The notes: generated by a model from the sequence alone, not told the origin. A stretch of DNA of 64,000 bases from Atractiella rhizophila (GCA_021432655.1 MU271335.1:1-64000); one strand, 5' to 3'. Positions 1,335-56,948 are shown, numbered from the stretch's first letter. Numbers and translations: made by a program.

Positions 1335-1342
1335 NNNNNNNN
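1335..1342. other. Assembly gap (8 N)
   Basis: N-run, directly left of mirror block 1. Confidence 1.
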
Positions 1343-1676
1343 ACTATAGCTTCTAATGGAGAAAGGGTAACTCTGGTTATAAGTCCAACATCCACGCATA
1401 CGTTTTCCGAATGAGCCACCCTACCACTTGCTCTTCGCTTTGAGCAAAGATAAGTTGTAGCGCCACGTGGTACATAGGAGGAAGTAAACCTTCCCTCTTG
1501 ACCTGCCATACTCCCGTCCCAATGACCTCAGAGAACTTCCTAGGTATGAGAGGTTTCACGAGAGAATGTCGCAAAGGCTAAGTCAAATAAAGTGCTTGCT
1601 AGGACGCGAGTATGTCTGCGCTGAAAGGAGAGATAGTCTTTGATGCGCCTGTTGGTATGAAAGCTTCTACCGTATC
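1343..1676. CDS. RBA50: RBA50/RPAP1 C-terminal segment, read as complement left to right
   Basis: Complement translates DIEDYLFPIETNIQVVGAYAKGLLGGMVNEKRNSFLFNIAVHHVSSFIWKG...ILSKMA*, the continuation of ...RDIRLSVQDAVLE at 4882. Confidence 0.85.
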
Positions 1677-1704
1677 TGAAGGTACATTGTTGTTCCACTG
1701 GTTT

Positions 1705-4074
1705 AGTGAAGGAGGGGAAGGAGAAGAGTGGAAGGAGGAAGTCGACAAGGGTTGGGAGGTAGGTTGGTTGGAGTTTGGAAAGTCAGCTCTTAGGAAGACG
1801 GAAGGGGGAGCGAGCGAGCGCGTATGAAGAGGCCAGGTGAAGAAGGTAGAGGAGTTTATACTTGTTTTCGAAAAGTCGCATGAGCGGCTGTCTTCTCCGC
1901 ACCTTGGGCCAGCGAACCGGCGCCTTCCCCTGCTGCTCCAGCTCCTCACCTGGCGGTCTTCTCACGTGCTCACCATAATCCGGTCGCCGGACACCATCAA
2001 CTACCAAACATAGTTACAAACCCCGCTTATCTCTCCCTTTACGCTTGGTACTTAAGATGCTACAATTATGGTTTTACAAGTAGTTGGTAACATGAGTTTG
2101 GGTGACTGCTAGAGGGTTTGTCGAGGTAGTCGAGAAGTTGAGACTCTAACTGCACTTTGAGGTGTAACAGGAATGCTCTGGTCAACACTCAAGCTGAACT
2201 TTCATTTTTCTTATTTCGCTTGGAGCTCGAGGTCAAGTGCTTGCTCGTTGGCATCGAGAAGGTGAGCAAAGAACAGGAGGAGTGGGGAGTGCCTTGGTCG
2301 GTACTTCTCAAAGTGCAGGAAGGGGGCGAGACGTGAAGCTAGGTTCTTGAGAGAGTCTCGGTTGTGAACGCAGGATACTAGAAAGAGACCGGATGTTTGA
2401 CGTGATAGTCCGAGCGGTGGGATCTTCGATCATCTGCTACCCCCTTGTCTTCTGCATGGATTTGACTCGTTGCCTCTCGTGCTAAGAGACGGACCCGACG
2501 CGATATAGGTTGGAAGGGTTAGATTATCATAGTGTTCCGCCTTTCTGCTGAGATCGGGAGAAAGGGGTGGGGAAAGGGAGGGAAAGGAGAGGGAAGGAGG
2601 AGCCGGATTGGGAGTAGGAGGAGCTTCCTGACCCGCTGTCAAAGGGGAAGAGAGACATGTGCAGCGAAAGGGAGACGTCTCCTCCCCCTCCCCCTACTGG
2701 GAGCCTTTAACTCTTTCAGCAAAAAAATCCACCTCCTCTCCGCCCCCATTGCCGCTGCTCCCCTGACCTTCCACACCCGCCCACTTCCCCCGCTCACACA
2801 GCCTCCTCCTACAGCTCCACTGGCCGCCAGGTCCTCCTCAAGCGGGTCTACATTAGCCGCTTGCTCTCCTGCACTCTCATCTCCTCCCTCTTCTCCACCA
2901 TTATATAGCTGAAACCCCACGCCCTACTGTGGGCAGCTTAGTACCAACAAGACATCGTACTCTTCAACCACTCTTACTCTACACCTCCCCTCCTTGCCTT
3001 GCGTGCTCTACCACCCTATCACTTGCATGCGCGGCTATCCGTGCCTCCCTCGGTCCTTAGACTGCTACCCTTTTCACTTACGTATCGGGTAGCACAGACA
3101 GGAGCGTGCAGTTGTCCTTCTTTTCCCCTCCATCCTCGTTGCTTGGCTACATGTGCAGCCCATACTCGTTGCTTTCTCGTAGTTCCCGGTAGGTGTACGA
3201 GGGATACGAAACAGGTTCGTAGCATTTGGAGCCGGTTGAGAATAGAAGCTGGGTAAAGGAGCAGCAATTAGAGCGTTTTACATAAGAAGAGAGCACTAGT
3301 CTTTCACCTTATAGCTTGGAGCAGAGGAGGAGAATCGGAAACGAAAGTGTTGCTTACTCCCTATTCCTCTGCATGCTCCTGCAACCTATCTTAAAGTCGA
3401 AACCTTCGCCACAGCGGTCACATCTGCTGTGTCACCTCTCTGCCCCTTCTTCTCTCATTCTGAGGTTCCCGTCGGGTCTCGTGCGCAAGAGGAGGAGGCG
3501 GTCGCAAGGACAACAAGGTATGACAATCTGGTAGAAATAAATAAGCTTGTCCACAGAGCCGTCCTAGAAGTCCCACTCCCCCACTGATAGTCAGCTATAC
3601 CTTAGTTTAGTTCGCTAACTCCTCCTCCTCCTCGAGAAGTTGGAGAGGAGGTGAGTCACAAGTAAGCTGTTACGTTGCAAAACCATAACACACTCTTATC
3701 TATTACTTACGAGTACGTACACACGTGTTCACTCCAATCGTTCTTTAACTCCTACTCGACGTAGTGCTCGTACCCTATTGTCTGCACCTCTTGTTACTAG
3801 GTGAAACGACGTCTCACAGTTATGCTGAATATATTTCCCCTGTAACAACGACTTAAACTACGCAACTGCTCACTGTCTTCAGAGAGAATATCGGACCTTT
3901 CCGACTCTTATCGTTTTCTTTCTGCATGCGTATTCCTACGTTCTCAGGTTGGTGCAGGTGGGGAAGGTTAGGGTTGAGGAAGGAGGCGGCGGGTGAAGCG
4001 TGCGAGTAGGTGCGGGAGTCGCGAAAGTTACGGGGGTCTGTTTGGTCGCTTCGGTGCTCTTCGTCGTCGTGGTA
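1705..4074. CDS. ALG11: ALG11 alpha-1,2-mannosyltransferase (GT4), multi-exon, read right to left without complementing
   Basis: Reverse reading: MVLLLLVASLVCLGALK (signal anchor)...GLLHPYA|NAGGGGERVLWAA...VVYTGD...WANSSWTAGH...VVFPPCDT...LSVAQFR|PEKDH...GLSTMVDEHFGINIVEFM|AAGLIPLVHSSGGPLLDLVVP...TGF...RKGRK*. Canonical GT-AG introns in this reading. Confidence 0.95.
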
Positions 4075-4292
4075 CGTAGGTAGGTGACTGTGACTGTGAC
4101 TTTAGAGTTTTAAGTTGACGGTGCACTGTGTGCTGTGCTAGACAGGCGCTAGTTTTGTTGCTGCAGAAGTGGTTTTAACTCACTTCATCGTTCCCTTAGT
4201 CGCTCGCTAATCACCCTGTTCGTCCTTATATTCAACGTCACCGTCACTTTATAGTTCTTCAGTCCACTCTAAATCGTCCCTTGTAGTGTCGT

Positions 4293-4792
4293 TACCCGTT
4301 CGCGCGGACCAGGAGGCTGGAGAGATGCAGCACCGGGAGCGGTCGCGGCAGACGTAGGGAGGCGTGGAGGGTAGGGAGGAGGCGAAGTCGGCGGTGGCGG
4401 GGTAAGCGATTGCTGGAGTGGGTGAGGCGGCAGGGGCACGCGTGGTAGGTGGTAGGTGTAGGTGCGGCGAGGTTGAGGTTGCGGTCGAGGGTGAGGTTGA
4501 GGTTGAGGTTGCGCTCAACCGCGCTCGCTTCGTCTTCGTTACTAAGTGTCCTATGGTCGCCACCACCTCTCCGCCCGTCGTAGCAGCAGTCCCTCCTACA
4601 CTGCCTCCACGTCCCTCGGGACTTCACCAACTTCGGACCGTACCGGGCACCTGTTCCCTCTCCTTACCGTCGCCCCTACCCGCTCCTGGAGAAGTCGGGG
4701 CGTGTTTGAGCTCTCCAACAAACTTGGAGGCAGCGGCTTTGAAGTACGCTGACGTAGGGGCCTACGTAGACATAGCCCTGTCTTCCTCTCTC
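4293..4792. CDS. NUD1/Cdc11-like gene, exon 1, read as complement left to right
   Basis: Complement: MGKRAWSSDLSTSWPSP...GMGEDLFS/PHKLERLFEPPSPK (needs removal of one base in the G4 run at 4697-4700), then a GTGCGT donor whose phase matches the acceptor at 1305. Confidence 0.6.
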
Positions 4793-4879
4793 CACGCAGG
4801 AAGAAAGAAGGAAGTACTGAAGAAGCGAAGATAGCGTACAGAAAAGTAAAGTAAACGTAAAAGCAAATTAACCCAGTAG

Positions 4880-7800
4880 TCCTCCAACACTGCGTCCTGT
4901 ACAGAAAGGCGAATATCACGGGCGACGTGGAGGTAATCTTTCCAAAGCAGAGAACGATAGTCTGACGGATACCGCATAGAGAGTGGCAGGATAAGCATTT
5001 TCGCAAATGCCTGGTCGCCAAACGACACTGCTTCGAATATCCCCAGTAGGTCGGAATAAAATTGATAAAAGGGTGTTGTACGCAGGAAGGCCTTTGAGGC
5101 AGTCTCCAAACCTTGGGAACGGGCGAGCGGTTTGGATTGAGACAGTGCGGTAAGGAGGGAGGATATGGAGTGCGAGACGGACGAGTCCCGGAACAGCTGC
5201 TGACTCGAATCTACACTAGTGAAAGGTCTGTTCTTCTCCAGCATGTACACTTTCATGATGTTGAAAAGTAGCAACGATCGATCTACCTTGACTCCGTTCG
5301 AGATGTGAGCAAGAAGGGACATTCGAGAGAGAACAAGGGACACGCGGGTAACCTCTACTTCTTCTGCAATTTGAGTGTCTGGCTCCTGGGAGCGACTCCT
5401 GAGTAAGTAGTCCACCCCTACAAACATCCAATCTGGTCGTAGCAGCTGGTCGTAAGGCTGAAGCTGGCGATCCATCGTCGAAAGACGAGAATACTTGTGG
5501 GCCTGTTGTGATGCCGGTTCGACAGACAACACTTCCGCCATCAGCGGTCTGATGAGTGGCAGATGTACCAATGAGGGCACTTCAAGCTGCAAATCAAGCA
5601 CGAATGGGTCTGGCGACACTGTGGAACCAGCCAAGACGACCATGAGGGAGTCGAGGATACGGACTGCAATTGTCTCGTGACCCGTGCGCAACAGGGGGAG
5701 GAGAATGAAAGCCAGAGGGAGCTTTTGAATCATTGGAAGTGCTTGGACAGCATCAACGCAGAGGTTGAGTATTGGTAAATGAAGTGCACCAAAGTTTTCA
5801 GTGGCCAAGTGGCGGAGTAACGATGAATACACGTTGGCATCGATCTTGTCCCCTAACATCTGAGGAAGTTGTGCATATAGCTGAAGGTAACCAGTGAGAA
5901 GCTTCGCTGCCAACAAACATTCTTGGGATGTCTTCGAATTGAAAATTTCCTCTGAGCTCATCCCTCGGATCTCATTGATATCCCCCTGCACTGTTTCCAG
6001 CATTTTCGACGCCTGTTCAAAAGCGACGATGCCCTTGTCTGCATTGGTAGCCTTCAAGCCTTCGAGTGCGTAAGCTGCCAGCGTCAACAACGGGGCAACT
6101 ATCCTACAGTCGCGTTGAGGGGCAACATTCTTCAAGGTTTGAAAACTGGATAGGGCCATCTCCTCTACTTGGGTCCAAACGATGTCGTGATGAGGGGTAA
6201 CATAATGAGGATTCATGGCCGCGATCGTCCACGCCACTTTCAAAGAGATCCATCTCTCAAACAGAGCTTTATCGCGCTCCTCATCTATGTTCTTCCCGTC
6301 GACGAATCGCCTCTCAAAGACTTCGAATACTGGAGTTGCTACTCTCAGCACATCGCAACCCAGCCCATACTCCGCCAACCTCTCATAGATGCCGAGGACG
6401 AGACCACCGAGATCGTGAGCTTCATCTTCCACTCCGGCTGCGTGCCACGGAGGAACAGCAAGGAAGCGGAGTAGTGTATCAGCAGTAGTAGAAGAAAGGA
6501 GTCTCTCTGAGCTTGCGCGTGATGAAGAGACAAGAACATGGAGGTATATGAGGGGTACGCGAGACGGGGCCAAATTGCGAGGTGACGGCCAGTTTCTGAC
6601 CGAGAGAAGGGTGGAGACTTGGTCGAGGAAGTGGATGGGTGGAGTGGGGATGGGGAAGCCACGAAGAATCAGACCAGACAGGACGGAGAGAACGAGGAGG
6701 GTGATCGTTCCTGGTATTGACCCTCATGAAGCTCCTTGATTGCGCCAGAATGAGCGAAGAAGGCTGCCGGCGACGCTTCAACGACCTTGTTCTCCACTTG
6801 AGGCTCCAACTCCTTCTCCCAATTCTCAACTCCCCAGGTGTACAATTCCTCCATGCTGGCCACTTCTATGTCAGGCAACCCCATCAAACTCTCCAAAGCC
6901 TCAACCGTCGCGCCAATCAGTCGTTGGTTTCTCTCCTTCAACAGGAATCCAACAGAAGCACGCTTCACCACCTCCATCTCAAACTTGTGCTTCTTCATCC
7001 CTTCTACAATTCCAGGCTGCAACTCCCCATACCCTCCAGCTCTGATCCTCCTCAGAATACGTCCTGCGAGTTGAAACGCGGCACTCCTCTGAGCCACAAC
7101 TTCGGATCCCAAGACTGAAAGCAGAGAAGTGATCGAGAAACTGGGATTTGAGGAATTTGAAGCGTGATGTGAATGTGGATGAGCATGAGCCTCTTGCGCC
7201 GAAACAGAACTGAGACTCGCATTTCCTTGCAGGTCAAAGACGATATCAACCGTCTTCTCCCCCTCCAAACGCGGAGGGCTGGACACTGACGAGCTACCAA
7301 TAATCCAATCCAACGCTCCCGAAGGGGAGGGATCCGGTTCGTTGGGGAAATAGGTGCGTCGAATATGTTCCGGCGTCCCTTCATCCTCCTCTTTCCTATT
7401 CTTATCACCCAGCTGTAAGTTGTCTTTAACCGGAGGTTTTGAGACCGTGATCGTTGTTGCCTCACTTCGAGCTGCTGGCGGCACGCTTTCTGAGCCCACA
7501 GTCGAGGAGGACGAGCTGAGAATGTTTGATTTTGAGATACCTCGATTTCGAAGCATATTTATCAGCTCCTTGGAGAGTCCAAGCTCTGCAATCTGCTGTC
7601 GCTCGATCTCGATCTGCTCCTCCGTCATACTCGCTAATAATCGTTCGTTTTCGTCGCTAACCGATCGCAAGAGATCTTCCGTATCATTCTTTGGCTGGTT
7701 GGAGTTTGGTTCATCCAGCCCACGACTTCTCGGTGGTGGTGGTGGTTCGGAAGGAATGGTGATCTTCTGTGATGCCGGAAATCCACTGGACGTGGAGGAC

Positions 7801-8138
7801 GCTATCCTTTCGCGTTCAGCCCTCGCGCGCGCGAAGCGTGACTGTTTTTTCTCTGCAATCGGGATGGGAGGTGAATCCTGGAGAGTGGGAGGAAGCGGGA
7901 TGGCATTTGACCGTGCCTGCTCCACAATCCCTCCCAACAAAATGGCGGAGGACGGAGGCTTGGGTGATGTTTTGAGCGATTCTGGTGCTTGATGCGGCGT
8001 AGGTGACGTCTGTGCCCATGCTGGCGGAGTTTTAGAGGGACGAACAACTTTGGCTGACGGTCTGCCACTGGAGGCGAAGGAGGCGTCGATCTCATCTATG
8101 GAGGCGCCGGGTCTTGGGCGTATTGGTAGTCCATCCAT
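4880..8138 (-). CDS. RBA50: RNA polymerase II-associated protein Rba50/RPAP1 (main body)
   Basis: RPAP1_N-like DENERLLASMTEEQIEIERQQI; RPAP1_C-like FDLQG...HHA...FSITSLLSVLGSEVVAQRSAAFQLAGRIL; later RPDWM and FYQFYSDLLGIFEAVSFGDQAFAKMLILPLSMRYPSDYRSLLW. Frame change near 6721; tail lies in mirror block 1. Confidence 0.88.
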
Positions 8139-8448
8139 ACTGCACAACTTTCTAAGCGTTTACGCCTTGGAATGCAGTGGAAATAGGTCACTCGCCTTGT
8201 TTTATTCATCAGTCGCTGTGCGGACTGTTGGTTCGGAAGCGCGGCGACGTTTGTTGAAGATTTACACAAATTTACAATGTTAATAACATTGGATTAATAA
8301 CTTAACTGGACTATATGGACGGGTGTCGATGTCATAGAGTATAATGGGCCTTTTCTAGTTCGATAACAAAAGGAGATTATATTCCCTCTACCTCACCATC
8401 CGCTCGATACTTTACTCTTCTCTTCAAAATGGTATCAAAAAAATATCT

Positions 8449-10739
8449 TTACAACTCATGTTGCTCAAAGAGCAACTTCTTGCTCTGCTCATAAACAAGC
8501 CAAGAAAGTGCGACCCTATGCACCACCATCCCTCGTAAATTGCCGTTCTCCAAACAAGGAAGAGAGGGGACGTACGAAGGGACCACTTTGCCCAGAGTAG
8601 GGGTGAGGCCACGATAAAAGCCTCTGACTCCTTCGTTCTCCCACGTCTTCATCGCCACATCCTTGAATCCTCCATAGATCTGCGGATGAGCTGGAGTGCC
8701 TTGCGCCTGCATCCGGGTGCGAACAAGGTTTCTTGAAAATTTTGAACAGAAATCCGTCAGCACGACTCTCACATTTATGAGATAAGGAGACGCACAACGG
8801 GTATACGGATGTGGCGCCTATCCCTCCACTAAAGCTTCCAATCGCCAATACTCTGTCCAGTGCAAATGCTTCAGTCACATACACAACCGTCAAAGGCGAG
8901 AAGACGAACCCAAACACGCCCGGTTCCTTCCCATTTGTCCATTTGGTATATATTACCTTCAATCCTTCAAAAACACTCATGTCTATAGCACTATAGGGAA
9001 AGACGCCGACGAGGCCAGGTATGAGACCTTTGAAGTAAGCTCTCATCCCGCCATTCCTCCACATCTCCCTCCCCGTCTCTATTATCAGCTTGTTACCTGC
9101 GAAATCTCCGCCAGTAGAGGACATGACGCGAGTCTTGAGGGTCTCGATGGGATAAATCACTGCATCGTCACCATCAACACGAGAAAGCCAGAAGTAGAGT
9201 AGTAGGAGACGTACTAAGTTGACTGATGATCCCACCAATACCACCACTGACAAACCGACTCGCGCCACTGATATCCCTCACATCATCCACGCGGTCCCAA
9301 TACCTCGCAAAAAGGCGCTTAGAGGATTCATAGCTCAGAAACTTGACCGCCGACTCAGGGAAGATCTTGATGACATTCAATCCGTTCCCGACAAAGAAAG
9401 CCCGCATACCCCCTTGCCGGTACAAGGCGGTGATGGCATCTCGGAGGACATAGATGCCTTGGGTCGAAGCCGAGGCGACGGCCACTGTCGCACTGAGCGG
9501 ATTGGAAGTCTTCAGGTGGATAGCGGGTGAATGGACGGTCGAGGTGATGAGGTAGATTTTTAAGCGGTCGAATGGGGCGGTTGCAGTTCGAGACACTACA
9601 TCACGACACCGAGGAACAAATCAATTCCTTCCTTCCCTTTCATGCAGCATGAAAAAGAGAAAGGAAACGCACCTGCACCGGCTATCCCACCTGCGAGCAA
9701 GAACTTGCCCGCGCCTTTGAACATGTCATCCGGCTCCTCTTCCTCCTCATCCTCCTCTACATCATCGTCTCCATTCTCCTCCGCGGAGTGATTGTGATTG
9801 TGATTATTATTGTGACTGACGGCTAGGGACTCTTTCTTCTTGCCCTCCTTCTCTCCCAATACAAAATCCCCATCTGGGGTCAAAATGGTGACTGGATCCC
9901 GCCTGTGGGCTTGGTAGTAAGAGTAGATTTCGGGGATGGATGGGTGACGGGGAAGGAGCTGTTTAAATCTGTTAGTCCGAGAAGAGGGGAGGACGCAAGA
10001 CGAACAAGAAGGAAGTCACGCCATTCCGCATAAGATATCGTGCCATCTCTATCCATGTCTATTGCTTCCAGAAACTCGAGGACATGCTTGTCATTGATCT
10101 CCATCCCTAAGCAGCCACCACTTCTTCAGTGATACGATGAGAAAATGAAGTAGACGAACCGGCGCGATGGAAGGCCTTTTGAAGCTCTTCCCTGTCTAAA
10201 GCTCCATCTCTGTTCTTGTCTACTTCCTGAAAGATATGCCATAGCTCTGACAATCCGTCATCACCATCCATCACTCTGCCAATCAGAGAAGAGAGGGAAA
10301 ACAACCTACCAACTTCCTTCTTTGCGCAGAACCTCTCAAAGTCGTCCCAACTCAGCTCCCTCTCCTTTTCCTTTCCCTTTCCCTTCTTCTGCACTGTGTT
10401 CCACCAAGTCGCTTTCCCTTTCGCAGCCACGTTCTCATCTTCGAACTCCTTCTTCTCGCACTCGGTCCACAGCTCCCTCTTGTACTTCTCCCGCTCTTTC
10501 CGCTTCTCCAGCTCCGCATTCGACGCCTCTCGCAAATTCATGCTCGCTTCTACGGGCGAGGGAGAGAGCGACTCGTACAGCTTCCGGAGACGGACTAGCC
10601 GGGCGGAAGGGGACTCAGAGTCGTAAGGATTGGGAGCTTGGGAGGTTGAGGGGTCAGATGCTTGGGAGGCTGAAGAGGCTGACGTTGAAGGAGCGAGGGT
10701 CGCGTCGAAGATGTCCCTGTTCGACGGGGGTGGTGACAT
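8449..10739 (-). CDS. SAL1: Ca2+-binding mitochondrial ATP-Mg/Pi carrier (Sal1/SLC25A24 type), multi-exon
   Basis: EF-hands DKNRDGALDREEL and DMDRDGTISYAEW, then three carrier repeats (TATAPFDRLK, IYPIETLKTR, VYPL|NLVRTRMQAQG) and GNGLNVIKIFPESAVKF. Confidence 0.92.
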
Positions 10740-12373
10740 GGCGACTGGATGTGTATTACTAGTAGACTATCCTGAGGGAGGTATTACTGAGTGAGAGATA
10801 AAGATGCTGAGATGGAAGATGAGTCTCAGAAAGACTGGTCGTTGAAAACAGGGAAAGACGCAAGAATGTTGCTCCACCTCCGAAATATGCCGGAAGTAAA
10901 ACGACCAAGTAAACATCACATCATAGGGCCATAACGACTTCAGCATCACGCCAAGATATACATGCGTAACAATGTCCTTGTGATTGGAGCCCTCACTATG
11001 CGTTACCTATGAAGGTCAAGGAGGAGGGCCTTCAGGTGTGTTGTCCTGCATTCAGTCCTCCATTATTGGACAGTTGGAAAACCTTTCTCTCCCATTTATG
11101 ATGGCTATTTTGTTTATTGGAGAGGTTGAGCAGCTTGAAGTGTACGCCACAATGTCTGAAAACATGGCGACTAGGCCTCTCATTCACATTCAGTCAAATA
11201 GTTCACGGGCCAGATTTGATTGACTGTTATAGGAGACAATCTTCTCTCCTCTGGTAACGGGCCATTATTAGAACATGAATAAACAGATGCAATGGACGGA
11301 TTAAAGGGAAAACTCTACTCAAGTCCCTTATTGAAGGGTTGGGACCTTGTCGAAGGGACAAATCGTGATAAAAAAGAGAAAGGGAAAATCCTTGTGGTAC
11401 AAGGCCAAACTCTCCTTTGTCCTCGACCTCGATAAGGTGAACTAGCTTGCCATAAATCTTTCATCCCATCCCAGCAGTTTATCGCACATCTATTTGCACT
11501 TTCAAGCAGTCTACAAGTTCTCTAAATCTAATCAGAAATGCTCGTAACCTTTGTCGGATTGGGTAACACACGTCCTCCTCCGTTCTCAAAAGAAGTAGCG
11601 ATGCCCAACATCCTAAGTTCTTCCACACAAAGGCAAGATACCTCGTCCAGAGAGTTTCATACGCTTATTTATCTTTAGGTCACGATATCAAACAATAAAC
11701 TACTGGAGTTTCTCCCAATTCGTCCATAGGAAGCTAACTAGGCCTACGACGATGCTGATGCTTTCTACCCTTTACGCCTTTATGAGCTTTTTTACCCATA
11801 TATTTCAGAGCCTCACTAAGATTGAATCGCTTTTTATGCAATCAGACACTATCCCTAGTTTGTCTTGGGGACAATCGATGAATCATCTGGTCTAGCTTCT
11901 CCATTATCATCGAATTGATTTCGAAATCTTATTTTGGTTGCATCTCTCATCCTCGATACTGTCAAAGTAACATTTTGCCCTTCTTTCTGTCTGTCAGCTC
12001 CATGTCGCCTTGTTCACTTAGTACTTAGTAGTATTTTGTTATCCTAATCTTGCCTCGACAAGCTCAACTTTTCATTTTCTCACTACGGATACTATCCAGC
12101 AAGTCTATAGACTACATCGGTATCATCACAGTGACTTTTGGAGACCCCCCCTCCCCTCAATACACCCAGAAAGCTCGGCGAACACCCTTGTCTTTCCCAA
12201 CGTCAGCAGCGTTGGCGAGACTCATCAAAGCCTTCTTCGGCGACAACGACTTAGAGATCCGATCACTTTCACCCCTCCAGACCATATTTCGAAGTTTTAG
12301 CGCCAACTTTTGTATTGGCTTGGAACTTTGAAATCTACAATGTCAGTGCTAGCAGAGCTGCTCATTCAGATCC

Positions 12374-13297
12374 TCAGATAGGATGAAGTAAAACATTAAT
12401 AATCATGAGTGGATTATACAGCTGGAGACCGTTTGGACAGGGTTGATATCTAACATAATGGTTGCAACTACATTTTCCTTGAAAGGCGATTGAATTGAGC
12501 GATAAGGAAGAACGGTCGAAAATTGCTTTGAAGATCGGAGGAACTGGAGGAACTGACTTGAGATAATTGAAATTGAAAAAGCTTGAACAGATCACTGAAT
12601 GCTCCCATCCACCATCCGTGTCCTTCTTCGTGAGGACACCCTGATGAACTATTAGAGCTGGTACCAGGTCTCTATTATTCGTTCGTTGTCGTAAAAGATC
12701 GGAGTTGAAGCTTGAAGGGGAGACGTGATCTCGCACTCATCACTCGACGATGATCCCGGTCGGTTGCTCCCTCTCCAGCAGTCGTTGTCTCTGCACCTCC
12801 TCCTTTCTCATCTGCCTCTTGATCTGTTCTTGCCTGACGCTGTTCGCCCACTCCAGTATCTGATCATCTTGGAAGAACTCTACCATGATCTTTTCGTCCC
12901 CTTTTAAAAAAGAGATCGCATTGTTGAACTGCGCCAATTCGGCATTTAAAGCCAAAGGATTCTCGAATAGCCCAAGGTCAAAGTTTCGAGGAGGCTGTTG
13001 AGAAGATGAGGAAGGGCTTTCAATGGTATAGCGTACAAGGATGCGGTAGGAAGGATCAAGGCGGAACATTTGCAGGAACTCTGCTCCGTCATGAGCAATC
13101 ATGTGGAACGAAGAGGGAAACAAACCGTCATCGTCGTGCATTCGAAAGCAGCGCTTGGCAGCCTCCAATATCATCGAAGCGTCATGGAAGAGGGGAGTGC
13201 CTTGGTTCGGCGTGCTACAAGAGGTTGAGCACACATGATGATATTGGGATGAATAATCAATAGCCTTCAGCTTGAACCAGACTGTCGACTCCATCAT
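12374..13297 (-). CDS. Hypothetical lineage-specific protein or pseudogene fragment
   Basis: Two same-frame ORFs (185 aa and 120 aa) separated by TGA TGA at 12737-12742; short coiled-coil-like stretch; no recognised domain. Confidence 0.3.
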
Positions 13298-15046
13298 TCA
13301 GTTTCTCGGCATAGAGACTCAAAGAAAGAATCACCCTGCGTTTTGACTAGCATTCGCGACATGTCGGTTTGCGATCGTTCTTGCCGATGGGGCGCCCAAA
13401 GGAAACCGCAACCAAAGCAAGAAAAAAACCTTTTTAAGCAAAGGCAAAAAGAGTTGTACTCACACGTCTCAGGATCAAAGCCACAAGAGAAGATTGAAAT
13501 GTCGATTCTTGGTGGTTTTCTCTGGGGAAAACCTGAAAACAAGAGCCTTCGGAAAAAAACTTACAATCACGATAAGCGAAAACTGACCGTGCGCTGATTA
13601 TTATCCCAGAGCTTTGACAAAATGGCTAGTCCACTTGAAATTGCTTATCGAAATCGTTTGGAAGCCTTTTCAACGGTGTCTTGCTTGTTGTCGAGGCTGG
13701 AGCGTCAGAACCAGTCAAAAGCCCAGGAGTGGCAAAATAACAAAAGGTCTCGAACTTTAAACGCAAGGTTCAGATAAGGTTCATGACCTTGTGAAGCGCT
13801 GCGGATTATGATCTGATAACAGCACAGACTCGGACTTCTGCAGCTTTCTGAGGCAACAACTGTGAAGCAGGGTTGAGGAGAAATTACCTCAAAATACTGA
13901 AATATCGACTTCTGCCAAACTAGCACGCTGTAGGCATCCGCTGCAACCCCCACGACTACTTCATGGTTAAGTTGCACATACAGTACTTGGCAGTCTCCTT
14001 CCATGTTACCGAATCTTGCCCACGTTCTCGCCCATCCCAGCAGTTTCAGCGTAATGTCTGAAACTGTTGGAGTCAAACAACCGGTTCTTAACACTCATTT
14101 CGATACTATCAATATGGTTGCCACACTAAGAAACCGCACGATAGGGGATACAGTACTGGTTGATGACCGCTTGGAGGTGTTCTTGTACTGCGTAGACGAG
14201 GGGTCACGAGGGAGGTATTTATCTTTCTGGTAACTTCGATAGCGAAATACATAGTAAATACTAAGACTTGTAGTGGATATGGTGGAATTCTTTTCTTTAA
14301 CTGCCGGTGTATGTGACGGGAATGTGACAAGGTTTCTCAAAAATGGCTCAAAGTGGCTCGTTATTTCCAGCCTATCTATGACAATCTATGAAAACTAGTT
14401 TTGTAGATTGCGAATCCGGATCCAGAAGGGCGAACGAACCGGTGCTCACTCGCTCACCCCTTCCAAAGCTCAGTTTGTAAACGTTGACGTTATTTGGCCT
14501 CGGCGCTGGAATCCGATGCCATGCTTCACAGCGGAAAAACAACAAGGTGAAAATGGTGAAAAGAGCTGCTGTGGGTTGCCAAAGCCTCTTCTCCACAAAG
14601 TGGCCATCATACTTGCAGCAGAACTGCAACGGAGACATCTTGCGTAAACCCCTGCACAAGGTACCCGAGGGTAAATACACAGAGAGCTATGCAGAGCCAT
14701 TATTGTTTGGGTGACAACATAACAACAATGTGGTTGGTTCTTCGAGCTTCAGTGCGCACGTGCATTATCAACATGCAAATCAAGCATGTATCTCGTTCAC
14801 GCCTGACCAGCCTGAACCTCTTGCCCTGCTTCTAATCCAACTTGCAAGGATGGAGCTCTCACCTCTCATCTCAGCCAGCATCTGAGCCTGTGGCCACCCA
14901 GAAGTTCACTCGAAAAAGTTTGCACTGTTTGTGAGAAGGCGCAACAAAACCACCACTTCATGAGGGCCGTCCTTGGGCCACTGTAAAATTGTCTGAGGGA
15001 GTCGAGGGTCTCTTCTTGATTATTTTTATGGGTAGTTTATGAAGTG

Positions 15047-17274: not shown

Positions 17275-17465
17275 TCTTCAATCTGTTCTTTTATCTTGGA
17301 CATGCACTATGCAATCAACCATGAACGTTATGGTTCACAACATCTCCGTAACCTGCCGTAACTTGTCCAATCTTCAATCTGTTCTTTTATCTTGGACATG
17401 CACTATGCAATCAACCATGAACGTTATGGTTCACAACATCTCCGTAACCTGCCGTAACTTGTCCA
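17275..17465. repeat. Direct tandem duplication, 2 copies, period 96 bp
   Basis: TCTTCAATCTGTTCTTTTATCTTGGACATG...CCGTAACTTGTCCA at 17275-17369 and 17371-17465. Confidence 0.95.
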
Positions 17466-30648: not shown

Positions 30649-30719
30649 CGTGTGGTCGTTACTGAAATTTACTGATTCCGAAGAAGGCGTTCAAGTTGGT
30701 CGACCCTGGAAAACATTGC

Positions 30720-46632: not shown

Positions 46633-46857
46633 ATAGCATGCACTTTGCACTGGGTATCACGTTTTATCGCTGCTATCAATCCAACAGAAATCCTGGTTTC
46701 CTTCCTTGTTTGTTTCGTTCGTGGTCGAACTTCTACTTCTGGAACAGAACGTACACCGCACGTACCTGGCGTCGTCCAAACACGCCGTAGCCATAAATTT
46801 GCATTGCATTGCACTATTCGTATTCGGTGGTTAAGGCACATCGAGTAGCAGCTAGCT

Positions 46858-49800
46858 ATGTCAGGCCAAGTCGTACTCTCATACTCGCCCTCAGAACAGT
46901 TCTCCCAACTCCTCCCTTCCCTCAAGACCCAGCTGCCAATCCTCAACCTCCATTGGAAGTCCAATGCCCGCTCGCTCCGAACAATCCAGTCTATCAACAT
47001 CGACTTCGAACAGTTCCCGCCTCATTCGCTACCAGAGCCACATCTAGGAGTCACCATTCGTCCAACTATCCACACTTACTTCGTCGCCTGCGACGACTCT
47101 GAAGTCTACCGGAGCTCAGTGAGGAAGGAGATCAGAGATTGGTTGGACTTGGTCGAAAAGAGGAAAGGACAGGAGTGGTTGATTGTAAATGTGGTGCCGA
47201 AGGGGAAGGAAGGCATCGGTCGATGGGCAAGGAAGTCGGGAGTGCTGGACAAGATCAAGGCTGACTTCAATACAACCAAGAAGGAGAGGTACGCTTTCTA
47301 CTCTCTGGACATGGGCGTGTAGTGAGAGTCATGTCCCTTCAAGGTGCCTCCAAATTTCGCAGCCTGGTACGGACTGGACGGAGTTCCTGCTCAAATTGAA
47401 AGAAGCAATCATTTCTACATTTGACAGCTACGTCTCTTCAACGGAAGACGAAATACGAAAACAGGACTTGCAGCGTCAAGTACCCGGCTGGAACTTTTGC
47501 CGGTTCTTTCTATTTAAGGTGTGGCCACATCTTTGCTGTTATAACTTCCTTACCTCGATGCTCTGCAGGAATCGCTGGCACTTTCATTCGAGTCGCTGTC
47601 TCTGTATCAAGACGCGCTGCAATGCTACGACGAGCTTGAAGCGTCCTTCTTTTTCGCTTTACGTTCTTCAAATCTCTCCTGGTTTGACAAGATAGGCGGA
47701 ACGGCACCTGACGACGACTCCGCGCCTCTGTTGAGCATAACGAAGAAACCTTACCGAGACTATCTACTCAAAAACGAGATTACCGTGTTTGACTTCAGAT
47801 GCTACCTGTTCGCGAGGCAGGCCAAGCTACTCGGAAGGCTCGGACGGATTGAAGAAGCGGGAAGAAGGGGAGAGGTCTTTATCAGCAACTTTGCCCGAAC
47901 ATTACGTGAGAATGAGGTGAGCATCCCTGCCGAAAGTCCTCTGGAGGAAATACTAAGCCAGAGGGAAGGCCGCCCTTGCCCCAAACTTCATAGAAAGCTG
48001 GATATACTCCGGTTGTCTCAATATTGTCGACCAATGCTTGAAATGGGGTTTAGAGAATGGAATGGAAGGGCAGATGCAGAGTTTTGGGTCCGTGAAAGCT
48101 GAGCTTCTCGATCTGGCGAAAAAACAGGTGCGCACTGCTCTTTCTCTCGCTCTAAACTCTGCCAATGTTAGACATAAGCTCGAAAAAGTTGGAGTGCAAT
48201 ATGGTCACCTCCCGAACGCACATCCCTTCTCAGTGGCTTTGAATGAGCATGTCCCTAATTCTGCAGACACATCTTCATCCGCGGACCGGGCATCTTCTCT
48301 CCCTCCCATATCGCAGAAGGACCTCATAGAGGCTATTGCATCAAAAGAAGCCCTAGACCAATTATATGTAAAGCTAACCAATCGAGCTATTGAAGCTTAT
48401 CAAGCTTCTGGACGCAAACGTTTTGCTCTCAAATTGCATGCATCACTTGCTGCTCTGGAAAGGTAGGCGAAAAGTTTATATCGAGTGTGGTTTCTAAGAG
48501 CTGCCAGGTATCGTGATCATTTACCTTCCGCTCAAAGGCTCTTTTCTCCACTTCCTGGCCACTACGTCGAATCTCGTTGGACAGGCATTGAATCGTCTCT
48601 CCTCCGTCATACCTGCGATCTTCAAGAGAAGTTAGACATGCCAAAAGAGCGACTGCTCAGCGTCTTGGCTCTTTTGCGAGCCGGCCTTCCACCGGATGCT
48701 GAACAGCTTCTAATAGAAGTGAAACAAGGTGCAGCAAAGCTGGACAAGGACTTTGCTGCCATTTCTTTTCCCGCCTTTGATGTCAGGTTGAAGGAAGGAC
48801 GAGGTAAACAAGCAGATGGAGAGGATGGCGTAATTGTCTCTCTGATTGTGGAGAATAAGCTTCCTTGCGTAAGAGGGCTACTTTATTGCTTCATTCCTAC
48901 TGACTGGGGCGAGCTAGTCAATGGAGACAGAAGAGATAAGAATCAAGTTTTCAACTACAACATCCGACCAGGTTTGGTTTGCCTCTGGCCCACACTGTCT
49001 TCAGTCTGGTATAAACCACGTAGATGTGTTTTCCGCGGTAAGTACTAATAAATGCCCTATATTTCGGAAGAGTGATCTTTGCGAGAAGAGCCCCATTTCC
49101 GGACGACTGCATCTGCAACTTGCGCAAATTCGCTATTCTCGCATCGTCTTCCAATACTCCTACAAGGTGCCATCGAAAGGAGACCTTCGCACATCACTGT
49201 CACAAGAGATTTTCATGTCCAAAGACCGCGATGCTTTTGATGCTTCAATAGAAGCCCCGTCGACAAGTCTGTCCCTTGCAATAGCTTGTCCGTGATGCTG
49301 ATGAATTGGCAGTTTGCCTCGACCAAAAGCGGGCGGTCCTCGTTGTCCTTCGTTCTGGAAGGAATGACGTTAGAAAAGCAGTAGTTTCCCTTGCCACGAA
49401 TGAACCCGGGATCGTCTTCAAGTATGATGAGAGTTATATTCCTTTAGGTGGAGGCATAACACAGGTCAAACGAGGGATTGAAGTTGAGGGCATAAAACCT
49501 TCAGAGAGAATGGAGGTCATGATTCCGTTCACAGGCGTTCCTCGAGAAGCCAAGATGGATGTGCGACCCCTCACTCTCCCTGCTTTCGTACTAAAGCAGT
49601 GGTAGGTCAACCTCAGTGTGGATTATTATACAAATGTTCGCCCTGATCAGCGACGAGCGCTCAAGAGAATGTTGCCGTTTTCTACCAGCTTGGAAGTTGC
49701 TGTCAACGTCCAAGATTTCTTCCGCACCAACTGGTGGGATTTTGTATCACTCTTGACTGGGGATTGGCTAACTGGGTCATAGCTTGATTTCTCGTTTCAC

Positions 49801-51049
49801 AATTGCGTCTTATAACGGCGAACCATTCCGGGTATCCTCTGCCGCGGTGCAAGGTTCGACTGATCTTAATTCTCAGTCAACCAGGTCTCAATGTGGCCTC
49901 TATGTGAGAGTATTCAAACTTCCATGCACAGGAATTGATGGATTGTGGCAGACTGTTTTGGGTGACCAAACTGCGAGCTTCTTGTTCAAATTCAATCATA
50001 AGGAGCCGACAGTATCCCGCACGTTTTTTCCGTGGTGTTGCAGTATTGCTGATCATTGTGCTCAGATATGGCAGCTCTATCTCGTTTCGTGCTGCATTAC
50101 ATATCAATCAAAGAGGGTCGGACCACGCTTGCTCTCTCTTTGTGTTCATGTCCTGATTTCATGGACAGAATTATCTGCCATGATCCGTGTCGTGACCGAA
50201 AAATTGGTCAAAGAACGCCAATTATGGAAGTACATCGGACTGCTCACAGAAATCACCTCAAGATGGCTTGAAGACGTTGATACAGAACATTACGCCCTTT
50301 CAGATGAGCTAATCCTACCCCGGGAAGACCCCCAACTCGCATGCAAGCTTAAACACCAACTGCTCATTGACGATGGTGTGGCGGACAGCCTGGTAGAATG
50401 TGTGAAGAACGTCCGAGAGGTACGGTACTTCTATGTGGTGCTCTTTGTTCAGAGGCTCTTCAGGTTAGCGCACGACATCGACTGGACAGTTCCGAGATGC
50501 CCTGGCGATCCCTTGAAATCCCCGTCGAAATGCCTTCCATGACTGTGCTAATTCCTCTCTCAGTACGGTGTCCAGTGCTCAAACTGGGGTGCAGATCATA
50601 AACGTTGTAAAGGTGCTAGCTGCAAATACCTCTGGTCATGAAGTTGGGGAAGCTTTGCCAGTACAGATCTCCATCCACAGCTCTTTCGAATGGAATGTCG
50701 ACGAAACGATCTATCAACAAAACAGCGTCGGTCTTGTTTATGACGTTGCTGCCGATCCAGAGGATTGGTTAGTTACTGGTCGAAAAAAAGGAGAATTCTT
50801 AGTTTCTGTGGGTGCTGATTTCCTTTGTAACTCAAAGCTAATGGAGTACAGCCATCAAATCCAAAGGAATGTGTGGTATCGCTCACCCTCGTAGCACTGC
50901 GACCTGGCCGCCTATTTCTACCATCCATCGTCATCTCTCCCATTGACCCAACAACGAGTTGTGAGACGCAGTACACAAATGCAGTTCAGCACATAGATGT
51001 TCGCCCAGTCACATCAAAAACCACTTTTCACGTCTCATTGCACGACTAA
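46858..51049 (+). CDS. TRS130: TRAPP II subunit Trs130/TRAPPC10, multi-exon
   Basis: QLPILNLHWKS, YRSSVRKEIRDWL, VLDKIKADFN, QRQVPGWNFCRFFLFK|ESLA, KPYRDYLLKNEITVFDFRCYLFARQ, C-terminal DWLVTGRKKGEF. Confidence 0.93.
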
Positions 51050-51153
51050 CATGTTGTATGGACCAGATCCTGGTGCGTGCTTCCACCCTGTTGAAACACC
51101 AATGTAATAATACCGCAATTCCATGTCTATCACCATGCGTTACCGACTGTCCC

Positions 51154-53033
51154 TTACTTCACTTTCTTCTTTACTGTCTGTTTCCGCTCTTTCTTTTTCT
51201 CCCGCCGCTCCCGTCGGTCTTGCTTCACCCCCTGCTTCCGTTCCTGAAACTGCGTCAGCTGCTGTTGGGTACATCAAAGAAGACTCACTCGCTTAGCATC
51301 CTTGTCCTCGAATCTTTTGCCTTTCGGCGTTTTCTCCAAATCGTCGTCACCTTGCTCACTCTCCTGCTCACCGTCTCCTTCTGAATCTGAAGTCATGGCC
51401 TCCTCTCCGACTGGCACCGTTTCTTCAGGCCTGTTTTCACCCACCAACCTTGTTACTCCAGCGTATATCAGCTGATCCTTCCCGCCGGTTAGCAAAATGT
51501 CGATATCACGTTCAGCATCCACGACGTCTTTGAGCTGAGACGGGATGTAGGATTGTTGGAACACGGCTTCATCGATGTGATTGCGCTCGTCCTGATGAGA
51601 ATTCCGCAGCGAATGAATGCTCTCCAATATGGCAGCAACGCTTTCTTTGCCGTCGACGCCATGCGCGCTGGGTTGAGTGACATAGGCGAATGTCTGAATC
51701 ACGCCTAGCGTATTCACACCTCGTTTGAAGAAAAAGTCGTCAACATTCTTGATATCAGATCTAAGAAAGTCGAATGCATGGGGGTGGTCATGTTCCACCG
51801 ATTGAGACACATCAATAACAAATAGATGAGACTGGTGATACCTTGCTCATTCTGTCAAATCATCCAAATCAAAATTTTGGAGAACTTACAAGATATTGTA
51901 TTCGCTCAAATCTGCATGTATCAATCTGCATTCGTGATAGAGCTGTCGGAGCAGTACCAAAGCTTCAATGTAGAGTTCTTCCGCCTTTGCATCGGGAATA
52001 TCTGCATCTTTCAGGCGTGGAGAAGCTCTATCGTGGATCAGAGTCAGTCAGTTACTGCCTGTACTTGACAGAGAGATCTCACCGCCAGGTGCCATCGCCA
52101 AGAAAGTCCATGACGAGAACGTTATTCCTGACCTCTACAGGTTCTGGGACCCGCATGCCAGCTTTGTGAATTCGTTTCAAATTTCGCATCTCCTTCTCCG
52201 CCCAAACTCGAACCATTTTCCGTGGATTACTCCTGGAGTATCCATTTCGATATCTGAATTCTCCCGTAACGTATCGATCCCGGTCCTTGAATTGGAGGAT
52301 CGAGGTTTTGTACACCTTTACCGCAAAATGTCTCTGCTGCAGGCTGGATTCTGGCGGTGCGGGTCCCACGGCGTGATACACGTTGGCTTCTTTTCCTGTG
52401 CTGACGCATCCATCGACTCGATCAAAAAGACCCCTTCCGATCATTTTGAACAGAATTAGCCTTGTACGGGGGTCGAGAACCTGCTCAGAGGTCGCGCGAT
52501 CGGATTTGTCCTTTAGAACGCTTCGCACTTCGCTGCCCCCTTTCCTCGTCGATAAGGACGAAACTGAAAAGATAGGACCTAAATTGAGGTTGGAAGTGAA
52601 TCGTGAGCCAAGAGTAGCGAGTTGATCCTCCACTTTAGAAGAATGGACATTTTGCACCTTAGCTTTTATTGACTCTGGTGCCTGGCGGGAGGCTTGGTTG
52701 AAAGCAGGTACTATTGCCGCTTGTGGCGATTTAACTTTTCTTTTCGTTCGTTGCTGACTGGCATCGATGTATTGGCGCATTCTGTTGTATCTTTTTGTCA
52801 GATCTACATTTACATTGCTTCAGGTGCCGTTCAAATCAAGTTTGAGATAACATACCTCCTGAGACATTTTCCCAGTCTGCTTGGTCCACATCCAAGTCAC
52901 TCTCCGAAGACGACGAGGATGGTGGTAGATTGGTGGTGCGCTGCCAGTATTCAGATGGATCGTCGAAATCATCAGTGAATACGGGAGGTGGTTTCGGCGC
53001 GGCAAACACAAATTCTGGGCGTGGTTCAGACAT
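51154..53033 (-). CDS. RIO1: Rio1 atypical protein kinase
   Basis: [111 protein letters not shown]. Confidence 0.97.
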
Positions 53034-53236
53034 CTTATTACTGGACCTCCTTGAGTTAGCTATCAGAGCTACCTTACACCTTGATCGAAGCTTGATGATC
53101 TTTTGTCGTTGGAATGAGAAATTTGATCGGAAGTCGGCGTTAATGGCGTTTATGTAACTTCTACTTCCACGCCACACCAGATACATTGCTGTCCTTCTCC
53201 TTCTGTTCGCACCGAGATCGTTCCCTGTCAGTCAGA

Positions 53237-53796
53237 ATGGTAGTCAAACGAAAACACGTCTCGTCGACGTCGCTACCTGCCACTGGAACAATCGAGGATA
53301 CCTTTTTGGACACCCAAGACCAAGAGGAGCTTGTGAGGCAATTAAGAAAAGATAATACGCGGCTGCAACGCCTCCAGGAACTCTTTTGCGCCATTATTCA
53401 AGGCCTTTTGATTATTTGTTGCCTGCTGTGTGTAATTTCACATGTCCAGATCGGAACACCCTTAATGTATTCGTTACTAGCTTCAGCGAGGAGTATTCTC
53501 GATTCGTCGTCATCCTTCAAGTCATTAGCCTTGGTCTAGCTTTGCGTGAAAATCGAGAAGCCAGGATCAGTCAACTTACTTCTACGAATGATTTGGATTT
53601 TCTCGCCCAAGGAATATTAACGCTGCCAGGCGTCTATGTTGCGGCGAGCTCGTACCAAGAGTCTTTATCACAAATATTCTGGGCAAGCCCTGCCGTTACA
53701 GTTGCAATACGCTATTATCTTCGTTGTAATTGGTTGCAGACGAACCTCGCAATTGACGGTCTTGAGAAAATGCAGTATCGATTTAAGAAAGTCTAA
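53237..53796 (+). CDS. Small hypothetical membrane protein (2 exons)
   Basis: FLDTQDQEELVRQLRKDN followed by hydrophobic segments, ending IDGLEKMQYRFKKV*. Confidence 0.6.
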
Positions 53797-53860
53797 ATGG
53801 CCACGGTCTTGTGTATGATCAATTACAACAACAGTTCTAATGTATAACATTTCTCCACTG

Positions 53861-54496
53861 CTACACGCGACAATTCGACTGTACCAATTCTGAGCTTCGT
53901 ACCTTGCTAATAAGATGAAAACATGGCGCACAATGTTAAGAATGAGTACATCCGACGCTCCGATCGCCTGTAGATCGTCCATCGTCTTCGCCATCGTCTC
54001 TCGCTCCACCATAGAACTAACTGCGACCCATTCGGAGTCATCGAGAGGAGAGATAGTTGCAGCTCTACGACCAGGAGTAATTTTTGTCGCTTCTGAAATC
54101 TTCGATCTCAAAATGTTATAGTTGCACAGGACGTATTTCTTGGCAGCAATCACTCCCGCTATGCGAGATGATATTAAGTCCATCAACTGCCAATTTTTCG
54201 AGTTTGGCTTCGCTGATCGAATAAGGACTGCCTGGCTGGAAAGAATGGTTTCGATTGGCTTGAGCCCAGCAGCTCTCATCGTTTCTCCGGATTCTTTTAA
54301 GGTGCACAAGTTAGCTTGTCATTTTAAGCGAGCTATGACTTGCCAACAAGGTCAACAATGCCATCAGCTAGTCCCAACGCGCAAGCTGCCTCTACGCTTC
54401 CGCCTACATACTCTATCCTGGTCGTTTTCTTCGGTTCTGTCTTCTTATCAAGCTCTCCAAAATATTGCGCAGCCAAAACCTCAAAGCTAGTCACAA
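53861..54496 (-). CDS. HIS1: ATP phosphoribosyltransferase, C-terminal half
   Basis: VTSFEVLAAQYF...YVGGSVEAACALGLADGIVDLV|ESGETMRAAGL...RIAGVIAAKKYVLCNYN...ITPGRRAATISPL...GASDVLILNI|SNCRV*. Confidence 0.96.
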
Positions 54497-54555
54497 NNNN
54501 NNNNNNNNNNNNNNNNNNNNNNNNNNNNNNNNNNNNNNNNNNNNNNNNNNNNNNN
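54497..54555. other. Assembly gap (N-run) inside HIS1
   Basis: N-run directly left of mirror block 2. Confidence 1.
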
Positions 54556-55312
54556 GCGGTGTTGAAACCTCCTGCGGGTCGACGGACTAGAGGTTCTTCG
54601 TGACGTCTGTAGAGGTCAAGGGTAAGTTTGACGCTTCGAACGAGGTTGGCTTCTAGTTTAAGCTGTTTACCAGTTGGAGGATGGAAGGCCCAGCTAGCCT
54701 CTGCGAAACCTTTAGAAGTCTTGTCAACGGTCCTGGTTTTTATGACAGAAAGTTTATGGATGCAAACTTCTGGAACTCTTAGAGCGAGCCCATTGCCTTC
54801 CTACACAACTAGAGAGCAAAAGCCTTGATAAACAGGAACGAGTTCGTGGGCAGGGAATGTGGTTTGGATAAGAGGAGCTAGTAAAACAAAGAACCGACGC
54901 CCAGTAGTTTGTCCTTCCTAGTGATTTAGACTTCGCTACCGACCTCTTGAGGCGCCGTCCTCTCTCATACGTTCTTTAAGTTCTGATGTAGTTGCGGACA
55001 CTTCGGCTAGGATGGGTAGCGGAGGCGTTATGTCTCAAAGACGCTTTGTTACTAGGCGACCATGAAACGCTTATAAAGGTAGCGGACTACTACTATATGG
55101 CCACCGAGTCGAAGTCCGAGCTTCAGGTCAAGGGTCTGCCTCTTGAACGGCTTGCCGACCGAGTCTAGCCTGTTAGAGTCGAACTAACCAAAGACTTCTC
55201 TTCTTAGTCGCTAGTCGGTCCGAGAGCGCACTTCCTACTACTTTCACTATCGTTGCTAAGACAATGCGACCTAGCAGCAGCAGTCCAGGCCTTTCACGTA
55301 TCCTCGCATATT
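54556..55312. CDS. SUV3: SUV3 C-terminal segment, read as complement left to right
   Basis: Stop-free for about 250 codons: ATTLEDAQLPDLQEALQTSPVPIQTAKLAPT...LFVLAQAPV...MIYRWLSFRLEVQFPD...HRSV*; continues ...QIAGRAGRYGMGKAKGMV. Confidence 0.92.
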
Positions 55313-55326
55313 ATGTAACGTAATTG

Positions 55327-56326
55327 AATAACACGAACTTAGTAAGCGTTAAGTAACTAGGTGTATATAAATGAACTATAGACTATATTTCAGGACTTGG
55401 TCTGCGCGACTCAACGCACGACCCTTTTGGGAGAAGAACGCCTTTCCATAACGCTGGTGCTCAAGCTTATTTACGCTGTCAGGAGAAGGAAACAGGTGAG
55501 CATTCAAACTGTTCAAAGTTAACGTACCTCCACTTACGAATGACCATTGCAGACCCCTCTCTCGTCCCCTTCCACCTCTATGAACCTTTCCTCGCTCCTT
55601 CTACTATCGCATATTCGTCCGCTGCCGTTTTGTGGTGGAAACTGAGGGGCCGACGCACACATGCTGCAGCTCCTCTCATCTTAGTGTCTTTTCTTCCCGA
55701 GTGTACTGTCGCCTCCGTTAACGAGATACCAAGCGTACAGGACTATAGGGCATTTCCAGTTTTCACTAATAGACGACCGCACCAGTCTTCTCGTATTTTT
55801 CTAGTTATTGTTTGACACAGTTAACGGGTAAAGCACCACTTTCCGCACTACCGAAGTTCGTGGCACAGGACCAGGGTGGTCCACACTCCCAATAGTCCGT
55901 TTAGTGATGTATTCTGCAGTTGCAGGTTTTCAGGTGACTCTTGATCGCCACCTGACTGACTAACAGGTCTTACTGTGTTACTCTAAGGACCTACGGCTTT
56001 AACCGCGTCCTCACGAAGTAAAGGAGTCTCGCCTCTACCGGGTTAGGCAGAAACAACGGACGTTGGTACCATTTAAACCCTGGTTCACATCCATCGAGTC
56101 TGGTAAACTCTCCGTCTCTTACACAACGACCTGTCTCGGCAACTCTAACTCCTAACACCCACTCTTCTTGTCGCGGAGTAGCAGTCGATCTGCACTTAGT
56201 CATACTAAGGTCACGACCACTATATAAGCGTGCTACCCGATGATGCATCTCATGTGCCGAGGGTCCAAGTTTACGATTTCGTTCAACTTCGTTCTCCTCT
56301 CATTCTTAATCGAACTACGACCAGTA
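55327..56326. CDS. GPI12: GlcNAc-PI de-N-acetylase (Gpi12/PIG-L), multi-exon, read right to left without complementing
   Basis: MTSIKLILTLLLLQLALA...VVAH|PDDEALFFSPTI...LCLSN|GNKDGLGHLRSEEM...IITFDLYGISGHANHRAI...QHATQRVWFRTLYQISSKYMWINEL..*. Confidence 0.95.
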
Positions 56327-56513
56327 AAATAAGCCCTGCAACTCACTAAAAGATGAGTTTGTTTACAAAAGCCTTAGTAGTATTGAAAAACGAAACGTAG
56401 TAAGGAAGGGCTATCGACGAAGATGATGGAAATGGTCTAGGTGCTTGAGAGTAAGAGCAATCAAAATATCTAAAATGTCCACCGCTGTTTAGTCTGCGTT
56501 GCTCCGCACTCGA

Positions 56514-56948
56514 TACTGCAAATGGTTCAGGTGAAACCTTCTGTCCGATGACAAGCGTTAGGGATTCTTTCCACTTACTAAAATAGAAACCATGCCCCGT
56601 TCCCAACTCAAAAGTTTTCCCTCCGACATGCTTTTCACGGAACTCGAAGAGCGTCCATTCAGGAGCGGCAAGGACGACGAGGACTACGAGTATCTTAGTG
56701 TCCTCGCCTATAGGTTAAGTCAGCGCGTTTAGCGGAACTACAAACGGATCACGCATTAGTACGGTAGCGGGACAAGCAGAGAAAGTACGAAACGACACCC
56801 GACCAAAAATGTGCACTACGATCGCAAAAGGAAGGACGACGTCTGTAGGGAGCAAAGCATCCACTTCCCTTACAGCTAGATCCATATTGTCCAGTTCTGT
56901 ACCAACGTCTTCGTCGTCACCCGAGTAACTAACTCCTTTAAGAAGGAA
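56514..56948. CDS. HIS1: HIS1 N-terminal exons, read as complement left to right
   Basis: MTFTKSTLEDRLLFAIPKK|GRLYEKCLELLA|GADIQFSRANRLDVCLVRNHAIAL|VFLPAADIPRFVGEGNVDLGITGQDMVAE...IEEILP, with three GT-AG introns. Confidence 0.96.

Follow-up and report, generated by a model that had tools for sequence, protein, structure and literature searches.

Blocks of mirrored sequence beside scaffold gaps in a draft genome assembly of Atractiella rhizophila

Two stretches of a 64,000-nt sequence from the Atractiella rhizophila assembly (the window, which lies on scaffold C156 of assembly G000 and shares its coordinates; other scaffolds are called C26, C155, C60 and so on) are written back to front. Positions 1343-4879 (block 1) and 54556-56951 (block 2) are confirmed as an assembly artefact, not biology: the true plus strand has been reversed in place without complementing. 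Such blocks occur assembly-wide. The original prediction, made from the sequence alone, placed normal DNA to the left and mirrored DNA to the right of both gaps in the window, amounting to about 9% of its length. N runs, Markov scores, a second haplotype and sequencing runs all bear this out, the two blocks together making up 9.3% of the 64 kb. The predicted span of 1335 to 56948 has the correct layout of gaps and blocks, and needs only to be extended by 3 nt, to 56951, at the end of block 2.

The window has eukaryotic, intron-rich sequence, whose gene content we read as that of a basidiomycete fungus, and exactly two N runs, with normal DNA to the left of each. Right of each gap the odds for TpA and ApT are swapped: in four 1-kb bins (3001-5000 and 55001-57000) TpA odds were 0.92-1.09 and ApT odds 0.41-0.68, while bins wholly outside the blocks gave TpA odds of 0.33-0.77. 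Of the dinucleotide tests proposed beforehand, TpA against ApT was thus informative; CpG against GpC odds did not discriminate blocks from normal DNA in this genome. A Markov score comparing the normal with the complement-only reading fell at approximately 1320-4904 and 54293-56951 under a first model, and a better-trained model gave sums of -105 for block 1 and -76 for block 2. By comparison, 260 held-out 1-kb windows had a mean score of +25.3 (sd 10.0, minimum -2.5), none of them below -10. Intron motifs did not discriminate, with counts of 27 as written and 18 mirrored even in normal DNA and of 2/2 and 1/1 in the blocks, and the longest ORFs in the two readings of the blocks (142 vs 250 and 146 vs 251 codons) are a weak signal alone.

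The structure of block 1 was resolved by a second haplotype. Window positions 1-14336 align with G000:C26:3025-17334 at 97.5% identity as two haplotypes assembled apart, which is not the case around 52500-58600; in this assembly haplotypes are split in some places and collapsed in others. The flanks of block 1 match C26 at 97.5% identity, and G000:C26:12458-15995 aligns with the complement of window 1343-4883 at 98.76% over 3,545 columns. In the best-fitting model the left flank and the gap are followed by window 1343-4879 in reverse and then by the sequence from 4880 onward, with a seamless junction (99.6% over 800 nt in the junction test). In true order the left end of block 1 adjoins 4880 and its right end comes after gap 1, behind whose 8 N approximately 11 bases are absent. 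Since the reversed block fits the other haplotype seamlessly, block 1 is the true plus strand written backwards.

For block 2, a second haplotype of the flanks was sought in the genome and not found, and the sequencing runs were used instead (the best 4 of 21; X5-X21, with a share of 0.18 or less, were left out). In the order as written, depth was 0 over 54670-56805 in all four runs. Contigs from X1 and X2 fit the window from 56952, and the 30-letter loose end that precedes this position is the exact reverse of 54556-54585. X1 and X2 come from one sample, which may be the source of the assembly; they are therefore well suited to checking the record but do not count as independent evidence. One X3 contig, from which intron-like stretches are missing, extends over the region of block 2 and has normal flanks. 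Taken together, the zero depth, the loose ends and the X3 contig place block 2 at 54556-56951; a translation scan of the junction allowed several in-frame positions between 56942 and 56957, of which the reads fix 56951. The X3 contig, 6,456 nt long and corresponding to window 52083-58526, skips intron-like stretches on both strands and takes in several tightly packed genes, which shows that it represents several transcripts that overlap or abut, and not one mRNA.

Table 1. Gaps, mirrored blocks and affected genes (window coordinates unless a scaffold is named; block coordinates as written in the record).
Feature	Position	Strand	Remarks
Residual gap 1	1335..1342	.	8 N; ~11 real bases absent (alignment to C26 haplotype)
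Residual gap 2	54497..54555	.	59 N; within HIS1; run contigs continue into gap
Mirrored block 1	1343..4879	.	3,537 nt; plus strand back to front; junction fitted to C26 haplotype
Mirrored block 2	54556..56951	.	2,396 nt; plus strand back to front; run contigs fit from 56952
Third block, left of 25-N gap	C156:71319-86137	.	14.8 kb; reversal-in-place junction test positive
Normal stretch, 10.1 kb	61212..64000 (start of C156:61212-71318)	+	Mirrored copy follows at C156:71319-81423
Low-complexity ORF crossing gap 1	1..1334	-	1,204 codons stop to stop on C26 (L003:5746-9360)
ALG11 mannosyltransferase, complete, hidden	~1705..4085	.	Approximate limits, mapped from C26 copy
RPAP1-like gene, normal DNA	4882..8159	-	RPAP1_N, RPAP1_C, TPR_RPAP1; junction cuts gene
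HIS1 (ATP phosphoribosyltransferase) 3' part, normal DNA	53671..54496	-	HisG and HisG_C
SUV3 3' exon, hidden in block 2	54557..55309	.	251 codons stop-free; frame runs on across corrected junction
Probable PIG-L/GPI12-type deacetylase gene, hidden	55330..56400	.	Mirrored translation of block 2
HIS1 5' part, hidden in block 2	56514..56951	.	tblastx, complement reading
SUV3 helicase core, normal DNA	56952..58108	-	DEXQc_Suv3 (E 6e-60), Helicase_C

The blocks in the window hide one copy of ALG11, the 5' part of the only HIS1 found and the 3' ends of SUV3 and RPAP1. ALG11 was identified by Pfam on the ORFs of C26; a six-frame search of the genome with PF15924 gave four matches, all at C26:13924-14625 and none on C156. 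The 614 residues of the RPAP1-like gene before the junction carry a last Pfam match that stops at residue 612, at position 164 in a model of 221. The 3' end of this gene is found in block 1, at the left end, and its continuation is seen at the DNA level in C26. The low-complexity ORF, which has no Pfam match, has its first part at the right end of the same block (approximately 4630-4879). The HIS1 5' part in block 2 was recovered by tblastx: read as the complement it matches three of three metagenome relatives (best E 3.6e-40), and read as written it matches none of them; a genome search for HisG found only model positions 67-156, in the sole HIS1 located. Between the SUV3 exon and the HIS1 part, block 2 probably hides a further gene, which we take to be a PIG-L/GPI12-type deacetylase from a motif in the mirrored translation. 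A six-frame search of all of G000 with PF02585 gave no candidates, a negative that carries little weight where a gene is split by introns. That genes in such blocks would escape six-frame searches had been anticipated, and both the HIS1 5' part and the C156 copy of ALG11 were indeed missed by profile searches. The suggested remedy, 12-frame translation, does recover pieces through the mirrored readings. To repair the sequence properly each block has to be reversed in place, and genes that cross the junctions are thereby restored.

Two errors, reversal in place and complement in place, leave the same local signal and are told apart at the junctions. Among 14 blocks, seven gave a junction-spanning match under reversal in place and none under complement in place; the other seven matched neither model, having no partner or only rough limits. 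Blocks on the left of their gaps, including the 14.8-kb third block, likewise conform to reversal in place. Each block so resolved is shown to be the true plus strand reversed in place: its N-adjacent end belongs base for base against the far flank, and the Ns are an unfilled remainder. In all three blocks with a haplotype partner the corrected order is seen in that partner (C26 at 98.8% identity, C334 and C249).

The frequency of the fault was estimated from unselected sequence. In a sample of 687,612 nt from 16 scaffolds, with 10 gaps, four gaps had a block on the right (both gaps in the window and those on C155 and C60), one had a block on the left (C156:71319-86137) and five had none. The blocks at C155:3269-5777 and C60:24897-26065 were confirmed against the haplotype partners C334 (96.1% identity) and C249 (99.1%). 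Twenty further 10-kb stretches, picked blind, held four gaps, of which one was mirrored on both sides (C760) and three had no block. Outside the scaffold of the window, therefore, 3 of 11 unselected gaps carried a block, and approximately 9.4 kb of 800 kb (about 1.2%) was mirrored; of these 800 kb, 110 kb (C26 and C224) had been chosen for other reasons, C26 and part of C1 had served to train the model, and blocks under about 500 nt may escape the scan. Extrapolated to 51 Mb from about 1.2% of bases and from 3/11 gaps at 11 gaps per 800 kb, this would correspond to about 0.6 Mb in a few hundred blocks, an order of magnitude only, since just three events lie behind it. The prediction of a genome-wide error is upheld by the blocks on C155, C60 and C760; the result named beforehand as refuting it, that no other gap flank shows coding signal in the mirrored readings, did not occur. 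It overestimated the scale, since most gaps are without a block and the 9.3% of the window is far above the general load. It also erred in placing blocks always on the same side: the third block and two blocks on C64 lie left of their gaps, and C760 is mirrored on both sides. Only some gaps are thus affected, on the left or on the right.

Gaps selected by a repeat were kept out of this rate. A mirrored repeat, used as a query, had 17 matches in all and hit six other scaffolds, in further agreement with an assembly-wide error. At the eight gaps in these places there were five right blocks by Markov score and one more by repeat match alone, together with two confirmed and two further possible left blocks. 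Wherever BLAST or reads confirmed a block, one of its sides adjoins an N run. At C155:73670-74206, C336:32765-33609 and C79:113205-114000 the Markov model made weak calls (scores -10 to -19) that do not lie at gaps; these three were unconfirmed and were dropped. A Viterbi start left of a gap at C79:101274 is contradicted by BLAST, 101500-101967 reading as normal, and a similar start at C1:66582 is kept as a candidate block only. In the third block, C156:71319-81423 mirrors the preceding C156:61212-71318 at 99.0% over 10,132 columns. Because the first 10.1 kb of the block mirrors the DNA before it, the extension apparently doubled back by way of a repeat, leaving a second, mirrored copy of window 61212-64000. 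A multi-copy repeat family is represented at G000:C156:69609-71318, with at least 78 matches (40 of 134 candidates scored) at 66-95% identity that cluster at gaps and mirrored blocks.

The blocks were very probably written by a gap-filling step that extended contig ends into scaffold gaps and entered some of the extensions mirrored. The far junction is seamless and the true remainders are small (approximately 11, 1 and 9 nt behind 8, 176 and 6 N), both of which point to a contig end extended into the gap. One-base indels numbered 17 in 7,245 block columns (in all three blocks, 14 of them in C155) and 0 in 6,097 flank columns; this excess, although mostly from one block, hints at an indel-prone, unpolished source. 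A gap filler of this kind would extend contig ends into scaffold gaps and keep what is left, the predicted gap minus the fill, as Ns. As the simplest single slip, a minus-strand extension may have been complemented but not reversed before it was spliced in. Since the complement of the minus strand is the reverse of the plus strand, whether a given side of a gap is hit would depend on the strand of its consensus. Later polishing would have left the blocks untouched, as reads cannot map to mirrored DNA.

An identical in-place reversal could result from a scaffolding or merging step that inserted entire small contigs in minus orientation and flipped them wrongly; the join of zero length on one side would then be a later or incidental closure. 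The accuracy of the blocks, 96-99%, would suit short-read contigs, and the many tandem near-identical duplicates in the assembly are a sign of merging or overfilling. Yet a wrongly flipped contig could not be closed seamlessly afterwards, whereas in each of the three blocks checked against a partner the junction with the far flank shows no N, overlap or lost base; as one-base indels are also raised inside the blocks, we regard this origin as improbable. A case-sensitive reverse-complement of whole scaffolds, in assembly or in later handling of the record, that left lower-case, newly filled bases uncomplemented would by reasoning also confine the fault to fills next to gaps. It predicts complement in place with the order kept, which no junction test supported (0/14, against 7/14 for reversal in place), and C26 shows the reversal directly. 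With seven blocks reversed in place and none complemented, such a flip of whole scaffolds is excluded; it is refuted for these seven and, by the runs, for block 2, and we assign it a very small probability overall. Smaller still is the chance that mirrored DNA exists in the cell, through 'swinger' A<->T + C<->G polymerisation or parallel-strand copying. DNA of this kind has been claimed from GenBank records (PMC4942731), but here none of the four runs covers block 2, their contigs carry the normal order, and the X3 contig described above runs across the region from one normal flank to the other. If real, the blocks would moreover break HIS1, SUV3, RPAP1 and ALG11, and they adjoin assembly gaps. 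For block 2 a biological origin is refuted, the order as written being absent from the organism's runs. A gap-filling step that mirrors some of its extensions remains the preferred explanation.

The hidden genes are ordinary housekeeping genes and biologically nothing new. Since the assembly seems to be without the first 66 HIS1 model positions and without any PIG-L gene, and SUV3 appears truncated, calls of gene loss or of a 'novel ORF' near gaps are unsafe. The blocks can be flagged cheaply by scanning gap flanks for TpA/ApT odds or with a Markov score, and in-place reversal repairs them. Other irregularities were seen. Many direct duplicates, 2-8 kb long, 95-99% identical and lying next to or close to each other, are present, as at G000:C1:33115-38417, C157:33173-37380, C500:11823-17307, C600:12933-17450, C224:21762-25896, C26:62547-68689 and C100:12651-30085; they are probably uncollapsed haplotypes or overfilled joins, inflating gene copy numbers. 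Window 50241-51591 and 58629-60464 are repeated at 100% identity as the small separate contigs C1831 and C1668, redundant leftovers, and a perfect pair of 95-nt direct repeats at 17275-17465 is possibly a small assembly stutter.

The mirrored blocks would have wider importance only if a common tool were responsible. We think it rather unlikely, although worth considering, that the fault stems from an undocumented strand bug in some gap-filling program in wide use and not from one laboratory's script. If it were, many public draft genomes of the mid-2010s would carry about 1% of mirrored DNA beside gaps, unpolishable, invisible to six-frame tools and a source of false gene losses, and a software error of this kind could account for some of the published 'swinger' A<->T + C<->G DNA. 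As to the tool, PBJelly or one like it is a guess to which we give somewhat less than an even chance. Eight of the 22 gaps seen measure exactly 25 N, a length that PBJelly may write where a gap is overfilled. Papers on PBJelly, in their available portions, give 25 N as an input threshold only, and describe a program that extends flanks and keeps the remaining Ns (PMC3504050). The leftover Ns beside partial extensions match this behaviour, which is not unique to PBJelly.

No published description of mirrored gap fills was found, the search having covered neither subscription journals, supplements and forums nor code trackers; the available portions of PMC7190621, 10.1101/2020.05.22.110833, PMC5938232, PMC7642942, PMC5134283 and PMC6240028 contained nothing on them. 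Errors of PBJelly-type gap fillers, so far as the accessible parts of the literature describe them (English et al. 2012, PMC3504050; PMC8848313; PMC7757076), resemble the blocks in their one- or two-sided extension, leftover Ns, overfilled gaps and indel-prone inserts. The errors set out in those parts are overfilling and low accuracy and, unlike here, do not include mirrored (reversed, uncomplemented) inserts. The blocks are also more accurate than the fills made by PBJelly from simulated raw reads in a benchmark, for which the available text gives 88.6-95.2% mean identity (PMC8848313), a point against PBJelly. As they are 96-99% identical to the other haplotype, and so above that benchmark, corrected reads or contigs would have been needed as input. 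The closest likeness is to 'swinger' DNA, claimed from GenBank records, for example for a 16S gene in an insect mitogenome, with A<->T + C<->G described in the accessible text as the only exchange rule yet found in DNA (Seligmann, PMC4942731). The transformation is identical, a block readable only as unreversed complement inside normal DNA. There it is presented as biology, whereas here the runs and the second haplotype show an error of the record, and we infer that a single exchange rule is what a reversal dropped in software would produce.
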